Assembly: GCA_037442105.1 (NCBI GenBank)
Contig: JBBIQV010000018.1
Span: 1 to 52,642, forward strand
From: Nitrospiraceae bacterium
Lineage (GTDB): Bacteria; Nitrospirota; Nitrospiria; Nitrospirales; Nitrospiraceae
DNA: 52,642 nucleotides
Reading direction: 5' to 3'
The translations under genes and the position numbers were made by a program. The notes beneath the pieces were generated by a model, which ran no database searches, was not told the DNA's origin, and saw nothing but the letters and a program-made list of their open reading frames with translations. Shown piece after piece: positions 749 to 51,290 of this stretch (position 1 is the first letter of the stretch; each line of letters opens with the position of its first letter).

Positions 749-824
749 CCGAGTGCGTGTCTGCGGGTGAGCGCATTGTAACACAGTCGGGGCGGGGCAA
801 TTCAAACAAAAGGGTGATGGAGAA

Positions 825-929
825 GACTAGGCGGGAGGGTCAGGAGGTCATGGTGCTCGCGCACCCCGCACTTCAGAAAGTGCTCGGTGGACGCGCGCAG
901 TGATGACCTCCTGACCCTCCCGCCTAGTC
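825..929. repeat. Structured palindromic element, copy 1: perfect 27-bp inverted arms around a conserved 47-nt core
   Basis: Arms GACTAGGCGGGAGGGTCAGGAGGTCAT (825-851) and ATGACCTCCTGACCCTCCCGCCTAGTC (903-929). Core 854-900 is 37/47 identical to 22993-23039. Confidence 0.9.
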
Positions 930-970: not shown

Positions 971-1135
971 CTAATCCGGATTCACGATTCGCGGTGGACG
1001 ATCGGGTGAGCGGAACGATTCGAGGTCTGATGGTTCCATTCTCCAGACGTTGAGGACCGTGGTGACCAGGCTGATGAGCAACCCCCCCCCCCCACGCGGA
1101 TGCGCAGAACCCGGCGACCTCGAAGCCGAGCCACT
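971..1135 (-). pseudogene. Remnant C-terminus of a YvlD/4-TMS phage-holin-family membrane protein, frameshifted at a G12 tract
   Basis: WLGFEVAGFCASAWGG, then in a shifted frame after the poly-G (C12 on + at 1082-1093) LLISLVTTVLNVWRMEPSDLESFRSPDRPPRIVNPD*. Resembles the GFxVxGFWxAxxGALxISLV end of that family. No N-terminal part is present. Confidence 0.5.
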
Positions 1136-1177
1136 TGTCGGTTGTATGGAGATGAACGATCGGCATCGGCCCGACAG

Positions 1178-7127: not shown

Positions 7128-7133
7128 AAGGAC

Positions 7134-7227
7134 GTGATGGGTGATGGGTGATGGGTGATGGGTTGGACTTGAGGGCAGATCATCCGTCTTATCTCACCTC
7201 GTCACTCATCACCGATCACTCATCACG
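7134..7227. repeat. Heptamer-repeat inverted array (GTGATGR type)
   Basis: (GTGATGG)x4 ... TCGTCAC TCATCAC CGATCAC TCATCAC, filling the ispA-hpnA gap. Confidence 0.85.
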
Positions 7228-8118
7228 TCAGTTGCGCCGCGACGTGATATACCGCGCGAGTTCGCGGAGCGGATCGGCGGCGGGACCGAATGATCCCAAC
7301 CGGTTGATCGCGCGGGTCGTGCACTCGTCGGCCAGCTTCCGCGCACCCTCCACGCCATAGAACGTGGGGTACGTTTTCTTGCCACGCTGCGCGTCGGTGT
7401 TCGGATTCTTGCCGAGTTCATCCCGCGTGCCGGTGACATTCAAGACGTCGTCTGCGATTTGAAACGCGAGGCCGATGTCTTCCGCGTAGCCGGTGAGGTC
7501 GTCGAGCTGTTTCGGAGTCGCGCCGGCTGTAATCGCGCCCATGCGCACGGCGGCGCGGATGAGCATGCCGGTCTTGTGCTTGTGAATTGATCGCAGAGTG
7601 GCCAGATCGATGTCTTTGTTCTCTGCCTGAATGTCCAGAACCTGGCCGCCGACCATCCCCATGTTGCCCGAGCCGTAGGCCAGTTCCTGAATCAATTGGA
7701 CTTGCCGTGCTGGATCGCAGCCTTTCATCAAATCGGGCCGGCTGCAAAGTTCAAAGGCCATCGTGAGCAGGGCATCGCCGGCGAGAATCGCCATCGCTTC
7801 GCCATAGACTTTATGGTTCGTAGGCTTGCCGCGGCGGTAATCGTCGTTGTCCATTGCCGGCAGGTCGTCGTGGATGAGCGAATAGGTATGGATGAGTTCA
7901 AGCGAACAGGCGATGGGCATGATGGTCGGCGCAGGGTTCCCAACGGCTTCAGCGGCGGCGATGGCGAGAATAGGCCGTACGCGTTTCCCTCCGGCGAACA
8001 GACTATATCGCATACTTTCATGGAGCGTTGTGGGCGTGGTCTGGACAGCAGGGATGACGGAGTCCAGGAAACGGTCCACTGCCTCGCGCTGCTGCTCGAG
8101 GTACTGTCGAATGTCCAT
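7228..8118 (-). CDS. ispA: Farnesyl/geranylgeranyl diphosphate synthase
   Basis: GGKRVRP, HTYSLIHDDLPAMDNDDYRRG, KTG, FQIADDVL, GKKTYP. Start set at MDIRQYL. Confidence 0.95.
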   Translation of the reverse strand: MDIRQYLEQQREAVDRFLDSVIPAVQTTPTTLHESMRYSLFAGGKRVRPILAIAAAEAVGNPAPTIMPIACSLELIHTYSLIHDDLPAMDNDDYRRGKPTNHKVYGEAMAILAGDALLTMAFELCSRPDLMKGCDPARQVQLIQELAYGSGNMGMVGGQVLDIQAENKDIDLATLRSIHKHKTGMLIRAAVRMGAITAGATPKQLDDLTGYAEDIGLAFQIADDVLNVTGTRDELGKNPNTDAQRGKKTYPTFYGVEGARKLADECTTRAINRLGSFGPAADPLRELARYITSRRN

Positions 8119-16477: not shown

Positions 16478-16490
16478 AACTTGAAAAGCG

Positions 16491-16581
16491 GTGATGAGTG
16501 ACGAGTGATGAGTGATCGGTTATGTGACGATGGCCGCCTCTCCAATCCCCAACCCATCACTCATCACCCATCACGCATCAC
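16491..16581. repeat. Heptamer-repeat inverted array (GTGATGR type) overlapping the MFP stop
   Basis: GTGATGA GTGACGA GTGATGA GTGATCG ... CCATCAC TCATCAC CCATCAC GCATCAC. Confidence 0.85.
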
Positions 16582-17754
16582 CGCATTCAGCGGTTGGATC
16601 TGCACGGGCGTGCCTTCATGGACCAGATCTTTGCCGGACACGATGACCTGCTCGTCTCCCGCAAGTCCCTTCGTGACTTCGATCCGGTTCTCGACGCGGC
16701 TGCCCACTTCGACCGGGACTTGGTGTGCCTTACCGTCGCGCACGACATACACGTATTGCAGGTCTTCCAACCGGCTCAGGGCATCGAGCGGAACCTGGAT
16801 GGCATTGGGATGTTTGGCTACGAGGACTTCCACCCGCGCGAACATACCCCCCTTCAGGAAGTGGTCCGGGTTGGGCAGGTCAACCTCCACCGTCATGGTG
16901 CGCGTGGCGCGATTCAGGGCTTGGACGACGCGGGTCACCTGGCCGTCAAACACACGGTCGGGATAGGCCTCGGCTCGGATTTCCGCTCGCTGCCCGATCT
17001 TCACCAGCGGCACGTCTTTTTCGACCACTTCGATGAGCGTACGCACGGTTTCAATGTCGTGCAAGCTGAGGATGCCCCGTGAGAACGTAGAAGTGCTGGC
17101 GGTCGCCCCGCTGACATAGGCGCCGGGGTCCAGGTTTCGTTCGGCGATATAGCCGGCGAACGGAGCGCGAATGTACGAGTAGGCCAGATTGGTCTCAGCC
17201 TGGGCCAGCGCCACCTCCATCTGCTTCACCTGGGCGTGCAACGAGTCCCACTGCGCGGTGGCGGCGTCGTAGTTGACCTGGGCATTGTCGAGGTCTTGCT
17301 GCGAGACGAACTGGTCCTTAATCAGCGCCTGCATGCGATCCAGCGTCAGCTTGGCGTTCCGGACGTTCGCATCTTGCTGGGCGACCTTCGCGCGCGCTGC
17401 GGCCAGGTTGGCCTTCGCCTGGTTGACCGCGTGGACGTAGTCGGTATGGTCGATCTCGACGAGCAGTTGGTTGGCCGCTGCCCAGTCGCCCTTGTCCACG
17501 TGGAGCTTGGAGATGTAGCCATCGACGCGGGAAAACAGAGTGACCTGCTGGTTGGGGGTGATGTCGGCTGTGTAAGCGAGCCGGACATCGAGGTCCTGGC
17601 GGAGCGGTGCCATCGTCCCCACGGTGATGATCCGCCCTTTGCGTCCATCGTTCTTGGCCCCGTTGCTCGATAGGCGGAACATGACGAGCGCTACCACGGC
17701 GAAGAAAATGATCACGCCGAGGACGACAATGGGATGACGAGTCACGCTGCTCAT
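16564..17754 (-). CDS. RND periplasmic adaptor (membrane fusion protein)
   Basis: N-terminal TM, SRVDGYI...VDKGD, coiled coil, IRAPFAGYI, LKGGMFARV. Confidence 0.95.
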   Translation of the reverse strand: MSSVTRHPIVVLGVIIFFAVVALVMFRLSSNGAKNDGRKGRIITVGTMAPLRQDLDVRLAYTADITPNQQVTLFSRVDGYISKLHVDKGDWAAANQLLVEIDHTDYVHAVNQAKANLAAARAKVAQQDANVRNAKLTLDRMQALIKDQFVSQQDLDNAQVNYDAATAQWDSLHAQVKQMEVALAQAETNLAYSYIRAPFAGYIAERNLDPGAYVSGATASTSTFSRGILSLHDIETVRTLIEVVEKDVPLVKIGQRAEIRAEAYPDRVFDGQVTRVVQALNRATRTMTVEVDLPNPDHFLKGGMFARVEVLVAKHPNAIQVPLDALSRLEDLQYVYVVRDGKAHQVPVEVGSRVENRIEVTKGLAGDEQVIVSGKDLVHEGTPVQIQPLNAVMRDG

Positions 17755-17809
17755 GGCAATGATTTGCTGCCCCTAGCGCGCATTATTCATGACGGTTCGT
17801 CGCGAAATC

Positions 17810-17887
17810 AGCGAATAGCCAGTAGCGCATAGCTCAAGAGGGCTTCCTTGTCGCCGGCTGTTCGCTGCTCGCTGTTCGCTACTAGCT
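17810..17887. repeat. Heptamer-repeat inverted array (AGCNNNY type)
   Basis: AGCGAAT AGCCAGT AGCGCAT AGCTCAA ... GTTCGCT GCTCGCT GTTCGCT ACTAGCT. Confidence 0.8.
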
Positions 17888-21716: not shown

Positions 21717-21738
21717 GCGCTTCGCTTTTTCCGACGAG

Positions 21739-21798
21739 AGCGAACAGCTAATAGCGAATAGCTGGGAGCTACCGGCTGTTCGTGGCTCACTGTTCGCT
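21739..21798. repeat. Heptamer-repeat inverted array in the operon 5' UTR
   Basis: AGCGAAC AGCTAAT AGCGAAT AGCTGGG AGCT ACCGGCT ... GTTCGCT. Confidence 0.75.
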
Positions 21799-21813
21799 TG
21801 GAGCTATGACTTC

Positions 21814-22318: not shown

Positions 22319-22378
22319 AGCCAATAGCGAACAGCGAACAGCGAATAGCTCAGAGCTACTCGCTACCCACTATCCGCT
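22319..22378. repeat. Heptamer-repeat inverted array between the decarboxylase subunits
   Basis: AGCCAAT AGCGAAC AGCGAAC AGCGAAT AGCTCAG AGCT ACTCGCT ACCCACT ATCCGCT. Confidence 0.85.
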
Positions 22379-22387
22379 GGGCAGAAT

Positions 22388-22966
22388 ATGAGACCCGAGG
22401 AAGGGACCATGCAGAGCCGGGCGCAGGCGATGGCGGCGGTGCTCCAGCTCTTGACCGATCAGCCGGTCATCATTTGCAACGGCTTTCCCTCGCGTGAAGC
22501 ATACAAGATTGCCGATCGCCCGACGCACTTCTATATGATCGGGTCGATGGGAGTGGCGGCGGCCATCGGGCTGGGGGTGGCGCTCTCGAAACCCGACAAG
22601 AAGGTGGTGGTCTTCGACGGCGACGGGAACGTCCTGATGGGGATGGGCACGTTGGCGACCGTGGGAGCGATGAAGCCCAAGAACTTCATCCATCTCGTGT
22701 TCGACAATGAAGTCTACGGCAGCACGGGCAATCAGCCGACGATCTCCAACGTGGTTCGTCTCGAACAAGTCGCCAAGGCGGCCGGGTACGTCAATGTGGA
22801 GCGGGTGCGGGAGCGCGAAGATGTGGTGTATGAGTTCAAAGACATACTCAAGAAGGACGGACCGAGCATGCTGCTCATCAAAGTCAATGAGCTGGCCGAG
22901 GATGTGGGCCGGGTGATGCTGGAGCCGCCGGAGATTACGAAACGTTTTATGAAAGCGATCGAGTAA
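22388..22966 (+). CDS. Phosphonopyruvate (or sulfopyruvate) decarboxylase, ThDP-binding beta subunit
   Basis: NGFPSRE, FYMIGSMG, DGDGNVLMG...DNEVYGSTGNQ. Confidence 0.9.
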   Translation: MRPEEGTMQSRAQAMAAVLQLLTDQPVIICNGFPSREAYKIADRPTHFYMIGSMGVAAAIGLGVALSKPDKKVVVFDGDGNVLMGMGTLATVGAMKPKNFIHLVFDNEVYGSTGNQPTISNVVRLEQVAKAAGYVNVERVREREDVVYEFKDILKKDGPSMLLIKVNELAEDVGRVMLEPPEITKRFMKAIE

Positions 22967-22967
22967 G

Positions 22968-23064
22968 GAAGGCAGGGACTGGACTGTTCCTATGCTCCCG
23001 GAGCCCGCACCTCGGAAGGTGCTCGCTCGACGGCCGCAGGGGGAACAGTCCAGTCCCTGCCTTC
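22968..23064. repeat. Structured palindromic element, copy 2: perfect 23-bp inverted arms around the conserved core
   Basis: Arms GAAGGCAGGGACTGGACTGTTCC and GGAACAGTCCAGTCCCTGCCTTC. Core 22993-23039 is homologous to 854-900. Confidence 0.9.
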
Positions 23065-23108: not shown

Positions 23109-24203
23109 ATGATTCTGTTGAACCCCGGTCCGGTGAACGTGAGCGAACGGGTGCGGCAGGCGCTGTACCGGCCCGATATCTGCCACCGCGAGTCCGAGTT
23201 CGCGGAGCTGCTGCACGGGATTCAACGGAAGCTGCTGAAAGCGTTCGTCCCCGGCGCGGAGTCCGAGTATGTGGCGGTGGTCTTGGCCGGCTCCGGAACG
23301 GCGGCGGTGGAAGCTTCGATCATGTCCGCGCTGCCGCCCGGCAAGCGCATGACCGTGATCAACAACGGTGTCTATGGCGAGCGCATGGCCGCGATGATCG
23401 GGTTGCATCGTCTGGGCGTGGCGGAGATGAAACTGGAGTGGGGAACCAGGCCGGATCCGGAAAAGCTCCGGCTGACCCTGAGGCAGCATCCGGAAGTGCA
23501 TGCGGTCGCGATGGTGCATCACGAGACGACCACCGGTCTGATCAATCCGGTCAAAGAGATCGCGGAGGTAGTGGATAGCCAGAACCGCGTATTCGTTCTG
23601 GATTCCGTCAGCGGCCTGGGCGGCGAAGCGGTCGATGTGGCGGGGCCGCATATCTACATGGTGGCCGGGACGGCGGGCAAGTGTATCCAAGGATTCCCTG
23701 GCGTATCCTTCGTATTGGTCCGCAAGGGTTTCGTCGAACGAATGAAGACCTATCCCAAACGGTCGATCTACCTCCATCTCACCCATTACATCGATGATCA
23801 GGGGAACGGCACAATTCCCTTCACCCCTGCCGTGCAGCTCTGCTATGCCTTCGATGAGGCGTTGAACGAGCTGCTGGAAGAGGGAGTGGCAAATCGCCAA
23901 CTGCGTTACAGGAAAGCGGCAACGTTGATCCGCCAACGGATGAGCGCGATGGGACTGAAGGCAGTGCTGGCGCCGGAGTTGCAGTCCAACACCATCACCT
24001 CCTACTACTTGCCTGCCGGTCTGAGCTATCAGACGGTGCATGATCGGCTGAAAGAACAGGGGTACGTGATCTACGCAGGACAAGGACAACTCGAGCAGAA
24101 AATCTTTCGGGTAGCGAACATGGGGGCGCTGACCGAACCACAGATCCATGGATTTTTGCAAGCCTTTGAACAGGTCCTCGAACGTGCGGCTGTCCGGACA
24201 TGA
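23109..24203 (+). CDS. phnW: 2-aminoethylphosphonate aminotransferase (PhnW/AepZ-like, class V PLP)
   Basis: LLNPGPV, DICHRESEF, GSGTAAVE, NGVYGERM, HHETTTGLINP, AGKCIQGFPG, PFTPAVQ, GYVIYAGQG, FRVANMG. Confidence 0.9.
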   Translation: MILLNPGPVNVSERVRQALYRPDICHRESEFAELLHGIQRKLLKAFVPGAESEYVAVVLAGSGTAAVEASIMSALPPGKRMTVINNGVYGERMAAMIGLHRLGVAEMKLEWGTRPDPEKLRLTLRQHPEVHAVAMVHHETTTGLINPVKEIAEVVDSQNRVFVLDSVSGLGGEAVDVAGPHIYMVAGTAGKCIQGFPGVSFVLVRKGFVERMKTYPKRSIYLHLTHYIDDQGNGTIPFTPAVQLCYAFDEALNELLEEGVANRQLRYRKAATLIRQRMSAMGLKAVLAPELQSNTITSYYLPAGLSYQTVHDRLKEQGYVIYAGQGQLEQKIFRVANMGALTEPQIHGFLQAFEQVLERAAVRT

Positions 24204-50240: not shown

Positions 50241-51187
50241 GCAAGAAGGTCCTGCGCCGTCGATCGGTGGCGCAAAGCCGGAAGCCGATCGCAGCCAAGG
50301 ATCTACGGGAGGTTGTCGCCGGCCTGCGAGGGAAGGTGACCTTCAATGCGCCGCTTCGGGACCACACATCTTTTCGGATTGGGGGGCCGGCGGACGTACT
50401 TGCGGAGCCGGCCGATGTGGAGGATGTGTGTCGGCTGGTCCGACAGGCCTATGCAGCCGGGGTCCGGGTTTTTGTGCTCGGCGGCACCAACCTTCTTGTT
50501 AGAGACCGTGGTATCCGTGGAGTGGTCGTGAGTCTGGCCAAGCTCAGGGCGATAAAGGAAGAACCCGGACATGTTCTGTATGCGGAGGGAGGCGTCGGGA
50601 TGCCCACGTTGATCGGCCATGCGATCCGACGGTCCCTTTCCGGCCTCGAGTGGGCGGCTGGTATTCCGGGGACGGTGGCCGGGTGCGTGGTGATGAATGC
50701 GGGAACCAGGCTGGGCGAGATGAGCAGTGCCGTCAAAGCTGTTCGAATCGTGACCACTACCGGACGTGTCGTAGAGCGTCCCGCATCAGCCATCGCCTTT
50801 GCCTATCGGCGCGCGCGTCTGCCGCGCGGCGTCGTGGTGGGAGTGTGGTTGCAACTGAAGCCAGGCGTGCGGGAAGCGATTAAAGGAGTGGTGAAGGACT
50901 ATCTCAAGTATCGGAAGGACACGCAACCGCTCACCATGCCGAGCGCCGGCTGTGTCTTCAAGAATCCGCCGAAGGATTCTGCCGGACGGCTGATCGAGAA
51001 GGCCGGACTCAAGGGGGCGTGCGTAGGAGATGCGCAGGTGTCGGAAAAGCACGCCAACTTCATCGTGAATCGCGGGGAGGCTCGTGCGGCGGATGTGGTG
51101 GCGTTGATCAGGAAAGTCAGACGTGAAGTGGAGCGACGCACCGGGGCCACGCTCGAGCTGGAATTGAAAATTGTCGGGCAAGCGTGA
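50237..51187 (+). CDS. murB: UDP-N-acetylenolpyruvoylglucosamine reductase
   Basis: [24 protein letters not shown]...[20 protein letters not shown]. Confidence 0.97.
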
Positions 51188-51193
51188 AAGAGG

Positions 51194-51279
51194 GTGATGA
51201 GTGAAGCGTGATGAGTGAAGGGTGGCAAGCGATAAGACGGATGGTTCCAACTCGTCACTCATCACCCATCACCCATCAC
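51194..51279. repeat. Heptamer-repeat inverted array between murB and ddl
   Basis: GTGATGA GTGAAGC GTGATGA GTGAAGG ... TCGTCAC TCATCAC CCATCAC CCATCAC. Confidence 0.8.
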
Positions 51280-51290
51280 GGGGAAAGACG

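Follow-up and report, generated by a model that had tools for sequence, protein, structure and literature searches.

A hairpin repeat of Nitrospiraceae with a conserved core, variable arms and a fold favored on the template strand

A hairpin repeat of about 100 bases that is real, undescribed and restricted to Nitrospiraceae is present in two copies in the stretch of DNA analyzed here (the window; 52,642 nt), which is contig C18 of the source genome G000 (2.81 Mb, 87% complete). With moderate confidence it can be explained as a dispersed, gene-less repeat that turns over behind stop codons, probably through movement of its folded template strand by a putative structure-specific nuclease or recombinase. 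This explanation builds on observed copy number, family restriction, covariation, position, turnover, nesting and strand bias. Among the points that count against it, no mobilizing enzyme was found in the searches described below, and the orientation of the copies follows transcription, which a role in mRNA would explain more directly.

Architecture, copies and distribution

In copy 1 a G-rich left arm of 27 nt (825–851, forward strand, as are all element coordinates given here) and its perfect complement, the right arm (903–929), enclose a 51-nt gap that holds a conserved core hairpin of 46 nt (854–899). Copy 2 has the same layout, with perfectly complementary arms of 23 nt (22968–22990 and 23042–23064), again a 51-nt gap, and a conserved 46-nt core (22993–23038). 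The original prediction had taken the core as 47 nt, but its final G is variable. Over these 47 nt the copies are mismatched at exactly 10 positions (6, 9, 11, 19, 22, 26, 34, 36, 41 and 42), and the four compensatory pairs that had been proposed are all present (6–41, 9–36, 11–34 and 19–26). The assignment of the two remaining differences to loops holds only in part, as position 42 is unpaired in copy 2 and pairs with position 5 in copy 1. Folding z-scores are −8 to −12 for the whole elements and weak, −0.8 to −3.6, for the 51-nt cores alone.

Copy 2 begins 1 nt past the TAA stop (22964–22966) of a gene for a thiamine-pyrophosphate enzyme C-terminal domain (22388–22966, forward strand) and lies sense to the operon; its right arm is followed by a purine-rich spacer that reaches the start codon of a class-V aminotransferase gene (23109–24203, forward strand). 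Neither host gene is part of the element. An assembly artefact is ruled out, since contigs from three other sequencing runs span copy 1 and the sister species (genome G001) has copy 2 at the same site. In the DNA contigs of the sequencing runs the left arm of copy 1 shows one single change in two runs, and no excision joint was seen for this copy.

What had been described as a two-copy element occurs about 50 times in the genome. When G000 was scanned with a covariance model derived from 72 copies, 54 matches were full-length and one was partial; one of the 54 (on contig C34) and the partial match were excluded from later counts. Profile scans gave 53 left–right pairings, and the gap lengths of perfect inverted repeats peak at 49–52 nt, where the gaps hold the same core. 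The exact pattern was found in 18 of 24 and 20 of 28 Nitrospiraceae genomes, and in none of 16 and none of 172 genomes outside the family, the 172 being other Nitrospirota. With 28 candidates scored per genome, the covariance model was matched in 16 of 18 Nitrospiraceae versus 0 of 132 other genomes. A GTDB search returned at least 129 stretches; 79 of the 80 named matches listed were from Nitrospirota and one was from an unnamed bacterium. By pattern, copy number ranges from 0 to 86 per genome. N. defluvii is among the carriers (L159). A Mu-like phage record carries two copies, behind AAA-ATPase and GemA genes; beyond this one real record the viral contigs gave five chance matches, and the plasmids searched gave no real match. 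Rfam returned nothing at gathering score in the window, and the weak matches were to generic models of long-hairpin miRNAs that score far under the threshold. No description of the hairpin family was found among the listed results of the literature searches. PMC6006769 and PMC12306157 each contain one mention of Nitrospira; the genus is absent from the main texts of two preprints of 2026 that deal with intergenic elements and whose supplements could list the family.

The complete unit consists of a G-rich left arm of about 20–28 nt ending in pyrimidines, two unpaired nucleotides, a core of 44–48 nt, three or four unpaired nucleotides (often GTN), a C-rich right arm and a purine-rich tail. From its foot upward, the core is made up of paired TGC/GCA, a T.C mismatch, 4 bp, a bulge in the 3′ half (GA, in some copies AA), 4 bp, a CC/TC loop that contains C.T, an upper stem and an apical loop. 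Variants carry apical inserts of 25–65 nt or an additional hairpin that replaces the bulge. The GA bulge, thought to be invariant, is indeed GA in 83 of 85 copies retrieved with profiles built from GA copies, but is AA in several others. The proposed fixed apical loop CRGA did not hold across the family, where NNGA and GATRARNNT types occur.

The larger alignment bears out strong covariation. In 72 distinct sequences 94.4% of the core cells are paired, and double changes occur at 9 of the 15 core pairs, with 126 double-change cells versus 38 after shuffling and only two one-sided G.U changes in 1080 core cells. Shuffled and slid controls were far from the core signal. The apparent invariance of core columns is inflated because most loci were collected with the exact core pattern. 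The predicted selection for a fold of a single strand in which certain unpaired bases are fixed is supported, and so are the covariation and the status of the element as a family.

The arms behave differently from the core. At outer arm positions no base exceeds about 70%, and 120 of 268 arms are singletons. Perfect arms were found in 13 of 38 copies in G000 and 13 of 54 in G001 (26 of 92 together), and in 1 of 162 elsewhere. Outside this genus arms occur in shared families at unrelated loci, so arms travel with the unit. In 10 of the 120 copies for which an upstream gene was called, the stem extends at least 6 nt into called coding sequence. At guaA, atpD and further loci the right arm is complementary to C-terminal codons of the host gene: at guaA to the W-E-stop codons common to both sister genomes, and at atpD to the K-V-stop end, which is present in element-free genomes too. 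Such complementarity to conserved host codons suggests local fold-back copying, which quasi-palindrome correction by template switching, as outlined in PMC8794818, would fit; alternatively, insertion may have been guided by short homology. The same correction process could account for the perfect arms, the clustered double changes and the stems that reach host codons. However, it is a mutational process and not an element, and it leaves the retained core mismatches and the spread of the repeat unaccounted for. The earlier idea that perfect, locus-specific arms reflect templated copying thus survives for some copying, but arms are mostly carried in shared families, and arms that are both perfect and unique are found mainly in this genus. 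Perfect unrelated arms are likely a genus-level feature that arises from template switching.

Two other roles of the arms were considered. As guides to other loci they gave only scattered raw 14-mer matches. As duplicated target DNA in general they were rejected, since arms form families and the empty sites (L227 and L243, among the loci listed) resemble the downstream spacer, not the left arm. The left arm of copy 1 (825–838) is an exact 14-nt match to the arm of another copy at G000:C21:26677-26702; the G001 orthologue of that copy differs in the 14-nt stretch, and the match may reflect chance or inter-locus transfer.

Genomic position, turnover and nesting

Positions were derived with a rough purpose-made gene caller. 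By this measure 39 of the 53 copies in G000 lie in sense orientation between co-directional genes and 4 in antisense, 7 lie between divergent genes, 1 between convergent genes and 2 at contig ends. Copy 2 has the typical placement; copy 1, antisense to both of its flanking genes, belongs to the minority of four. Where a sense gene lies upstream, the element starts no more than 17 nt past the stop in 35 of 42 copies, and the sense post-stop bias recurs in other genomes. The neighbors (58, of 36 copies) are housekeeping genes such as secA, gatB/eno, fusA/tuf, rplW/rplB, guaA, ribBA/ribH, ftsK/lolA, purC/S/Q, sucC/D and cysD/N/H. The atpD-atpC, purC-purS and ftsK-lolA junctions are occupied in many genera.

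This placement would fit a host-selected mRNA element, in which a long stem behind the stop would stabilize polycistronic mRNA, divide it into segments or adjust Rho termination, with the core as a protein-binding site. We regard this as unlikely, even though several observations speak for it: the excess of 39 sense over 4 antisense copies at co-directional junctions, the closeness to stops, the occupation of fusA-tuf, rplW-rplB, atpD-atpC, sucC-sucD and purC-purS, and the frequent presence of another long hairpin at orthologous sites. E. coli REPs, which act as 3′-UTR stabilizers and partial terminators according to bioRxiv 10.64898/2026.03.23.713779, provide a precedent. Against an mRNA element speak the single copy between convergent genes and the dispensability of the sites described below, and spread, nesting and phage copies would be left unexplained.

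Judged by codon skew as a proxy, the reading direction of 39 of 50 copies is that of the leading strand, versus a background of 61%. For lagging-strand genes six copies are sense and two antisense. Replication alone was rejected as the cause of orientation, being weaker than transcription, but a leading-strand excess remains (31/36 vs 503/826).

Comparison of filled and empty orthologous sites, which had been suggested as a check, revealed both gain and loss. At the copy 2 junction 4 of 30 orthologues carry the element, with different arms and a different core in a second genus; by eye, most junctions without it contain hairpins of tandem heptamers, and in two the spacer is short. At atpD-atpC the element is present in 14 of 30 genomes, with differing arms, and 6 of 30 have almost no spacer. 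Of the 55 copies in G001, 18 have a counterpart core at the corresponding site in G000, 26 have no core of 44–52 nt there and 11 could not be placed. The left arms at the 18 shared sites are near-identical in 8 cases, unlike in 9 and intermediate in 1, and one G000 site was matched twice. Seven shared loci that were scored showed 6 double compensatory changes, from two loci, versus 7 single changes.

Nested and tandem arrays are common. Two nested cases have an 8-nt apex repeat at both junctions and others show it in part. When L226 is compared with contig C23 of G000, a newer unit occupies the place of the older left half, and the older right half and arm remain. Copy 1 has the same history in G001 (L331), where a diverged version of the right arm persists, together with the right half, behind a newer nested copy that has replaced the older left half. 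An excised circle or a clean pre-insertion site was not seen.

A MITE moved by a DDE transposase of the IS5/IS630 type, in which the arms would be the terminal inverted repeats and the stop codon the target, is another explanation, and we think it quite improbable. Other MITE-like families with fixed terminal repeats do occur in the genome, arm families are shared in other genera, and direct repeats of 2 nt occur at the ends of the stem slightly above chance (26 vs 16 of 241, the true ends being uncertain). The ends are, however, the least conserved part of the element, an excess of 3–8-nt target duplications was not found at these uncertain ends, and DDE transposition gives no reason for strand-specific wobbles or fixed internal mismatches. 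ERIC, Correia and MITE palindromic repeats share with the element a length of about 100–150 nt, the lack of genes, hairpin formation, a position near stops and nested insertions; they differ from it in their conserved terminal inverted repeats, where the arms of the element vary, and no fixed target duplication was found for the element.

Several other structures were noticed. Long intergenic hairpins with tandem-heptamer arms lie in the window at 2502–2591, 7131–7229, 16485–16587, 17809–17887, 21732–21805, 22319–22378 and 51185–51280; they occupy the same post-stop niche and substitute for the studied element at orthologous sites, without strand bias. MITE-like elements of at least three families are found on contigs C1, C2, C3, C8, C10, C14, C15, C20, C33, C34 and others of G000; their terminal repeats are fixed (with ends of the CTAG type in two families) and their internal hairpins can be exchanged. 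Inside such MITE-like elements the studied element occurs as well, as does its bulge-replacing module. Tandem paralogues of a lipoprotein-like gene of 147 aa, without Pfam match, are each followed by the element (L107, L108, L185 and L207). At L067 1650–3300 (G000:C35:30150-31780) genes for a Phd/YefM antitoxin and a ParE-family toxin are enclosed by two direct copies whose arms are related; more copies and a DUF6883 gene follow, in a cassette-like arrangement.

The folded strand and the search for a mobilizing enzyme

The original prediction left open whether RNA or DNA folds. Mismatches in 106 dereplicated arms (one per cluster), read on the mRNA strand, are A.C or C.A in 108 cases versus G.T or T.G in 31, counts that are not independent, as arm families share mismatches and shared ancestry inflates them. 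The excess was repeated in one further set (63:11) and in other genomes (81:11), and a control of 79 other intergenic hairpins of G000 gave 50:58. Since A.C on the mRNA strand corresponds to G.T on the template strand, the excess speaks for a folded single strand of DNA and not for an mRNA motif. The template strand is the more stable DNA fold in 106 of 111 cores, partly because the core mismatches are fixed; these read G.A on the template strand. The usual mutation biases of transcription and replication predict the opposite skew for a coding strand on the leading side, and an mRNA stem should show the reverse mismatch skew. The wobbles kept on the opposite strand and the near absence of one-sided G.U changes in the core argue against the mRNA element. 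Of the two options the fold is placed on the strand opposite the mRNA, in DNA, which speaks against RNA processing or stability as the main constraint.

A similar skew toward G:T pairs and unpaired purines is described for the recombinogenic bottom strand of attC sites (PMC5027507), and strand-specific recognition of bulged single-stranded DNA hairpins for TnpA-REP (PMC8266576). Solo attC-type sites recombined by the integron integrase IntI are nevertheless a very improbable explanation and are largely refuted. Like attC, the element is a structure-conserved, sequence-variable hairpin with extrahelical bases right after a stop, and its bottom strand lies on the inferred leading-strand template in the 39 of 50 copies mentioned above, as for sedentary integrons in PMC5371416. 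The toxin–antitoxin pair between direct copies would also fit, as would an intI gene at 1.1–1.4 kb from one copy in G000 and G001. However, R boxes (RYYYAAC/GTTRRRY) were found in 0 of 268 copies, intI was absent from searches of G018, G004, G015 and G020, no cassette arrays linked to intI contain the element, the flanking genes are core housekeeping genes, the center is conserved in sequence, and attC-like sites of conventional form were seen, by eye, to the opposite side of these integrases. Integron integrases occur in G000, G001 and G002 (L257, L258, L261, L265 and L266), with attC-like sites downstream in the same orientation (by eye).

A RAYT or an IS200/IS605 TnpA gene flanked by the element, as had been anticipated, was not found. 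A Y1 match is present in 72 of 121 Nitrospiraceae genomes, with three Y1/RAYT genes each in G000 and G001, but within ±1.5 kb of Y1 loci model R1 detected the element in 0 of 36 cases (the 30 best of about 160 family matches plus 6 from G000 and G001). In G018, which is 99% complete and has 56 copies, no Y1 match was obtained. The Y1 genes of G000 are flanked by other inverted repeats. Two Y1/HUH genes (L001 and L002) are flanked by GGGGACAG- and GGGGTCA-type inverted repeats, and these flanks match the TIRYT description in PMC6006769.

Transcription into mRNA, reverse transcription into a template-strand cDNA hairpin and reinsertion would account for the sense orientation, the template-strand folding and the copied host gene ends; still, we consider such a retro-type route improbable. 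The favored strand is that of a cDNA, orientation tracks transcription on lagging-strand genes as well, and the variable yet paired outer arms would resemble the a1/a2 arms of retrons. Compared with the retron layout, the element has no adjacent reverse transcriptase, no msr-like second domain beside an msd and no fixed branching G, the left spacer being TG, CG or CT. Reverse transcriptase genes were not matched in three high-copy genomes or beside copies, and the three such loci that were found lack the element. UG27 reverse transcriptases, which template cDNA hairpins from sequence-diverse units according to bioRxiv 10.64898/2026.09.22.753630, could serve as a precedent.

Each of Y1, IntI, reverse transcriptase and IS110 is missing from at least one near-complete high-copy genome (five high-copy genomes were compared for reverse transcriptase and IS110). 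A search for Y2 gave no matches, with the positive controls likewise blank. No gene was found as cargo between left and right halves in 362 loci, and these loci contain one Y1 match, at a locus that also has an IS110 fragment, and two integrase matches. The enzyme may have been lost, may be unrecognized or may be host-encoded.

Relation to REP elements and a possible mechanism

The element works most like a REP/REPIN or an attC site, that is, as what would be a folded single-stranded DNA substrate with functional unpaired bases, and is a member of neither. It shares with REP, BIME and REPIN sequences and their RAYTs the nature of a high-copy, lineage-restricted, extragenic imperfect palindrome just past stops with conserved stem mismatches, as well as mosaic tandem arrays with linkers and patchy presence at orthologous sites. 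In contrast to REPINs its architecture is inverted, with a conserved center and variable arms, and it is locked to the direction of transcription, favors a fold on the template strand and is rare between convergent genes. The GTAG/GTGG foot located 0–2 nt 5′ of the hairpin, by which REPs are defined in PMC6006769, was found at the core foot in 0 of 268 copies on either strand; at the whole hairpin it occurs in 17 of 241 on the top and 1 of 241 on the bottom strand, and 3′ of the core in 65 of 268. The suggestion of a REP/REPIN-like substrate for an HUH transposase is retained for the behavior, and not for the Y1 enzyme and the foot. The element is an undescribed REP/REPIN-like variant, for which we infer a mechanism.

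In the proposed mechanism the moving enzyme would read the shape of the core and its fixed unpaired bases on the template strand, namely the G.A mismatches and the 2-nt pyrimidine bulge. With a shape-reading enzyme, paired positions and outer arms would be free to vary while they pair. Earlier copies could be favored targets, in which case old sites would be refreshed and no host function would be needed to keep the core uniform. As DNA is replicated, template switching by fold-back might perfect and extend the arms, most visibly in this genus. The sense position behind stops may result from targeting, or from purging of insertions that disturb operon expression, and any effect on mRNA stability would be secondary. 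The junctions that are occupied in many genera could also be explained by host selection on old insertions.

A more specific proposal, which seems rather unlikely, is a self-homing single-stranded DNA element of a new class. Here a structure-specific enzyme, possibly host-encoded, would read the folded template strand by shape and insert it at stops and at the tips of older copies, and the right arm would be written by fold-back copying of adjacent host DNA. If true, this would amount to an attC-like, sequence-tolerant recombination site that is dispersed genome-wide without an integron, RAYT or transposase.

For the spread of REP-type repeats the element provides an unusually clear test case in which shape is kept and sequence is not, the constrained strand is opposite the mRNA and none of the usual enzymes accompanies it. 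Should an enzyme be found, a structure-specific system of single-stranded DNA recombination would join IntI/attC and TnpA/REP, and might be put to use as a recombination site that tolerates sequence variation. Should there be none, the element would be a strong natural case of template switching that produces compensatory changes without RNA selection, and would call for caution in covariation-based RNA discovery.

Two features of the window border copy 1. A promoter-like TTGAAT...TACAAT (775–805, minus strand) lies upstream of a GAF-domain gene, 20 nt from copy 1, and is conserved in relatives as judged by eye. On the other side a small hydrophobic-protein gene is reduced to its 3′ end (971–1140, minus strand), with a C12 run at the break; it is intact in five relatives, where the protein ends in PPRIVNPD or similar.
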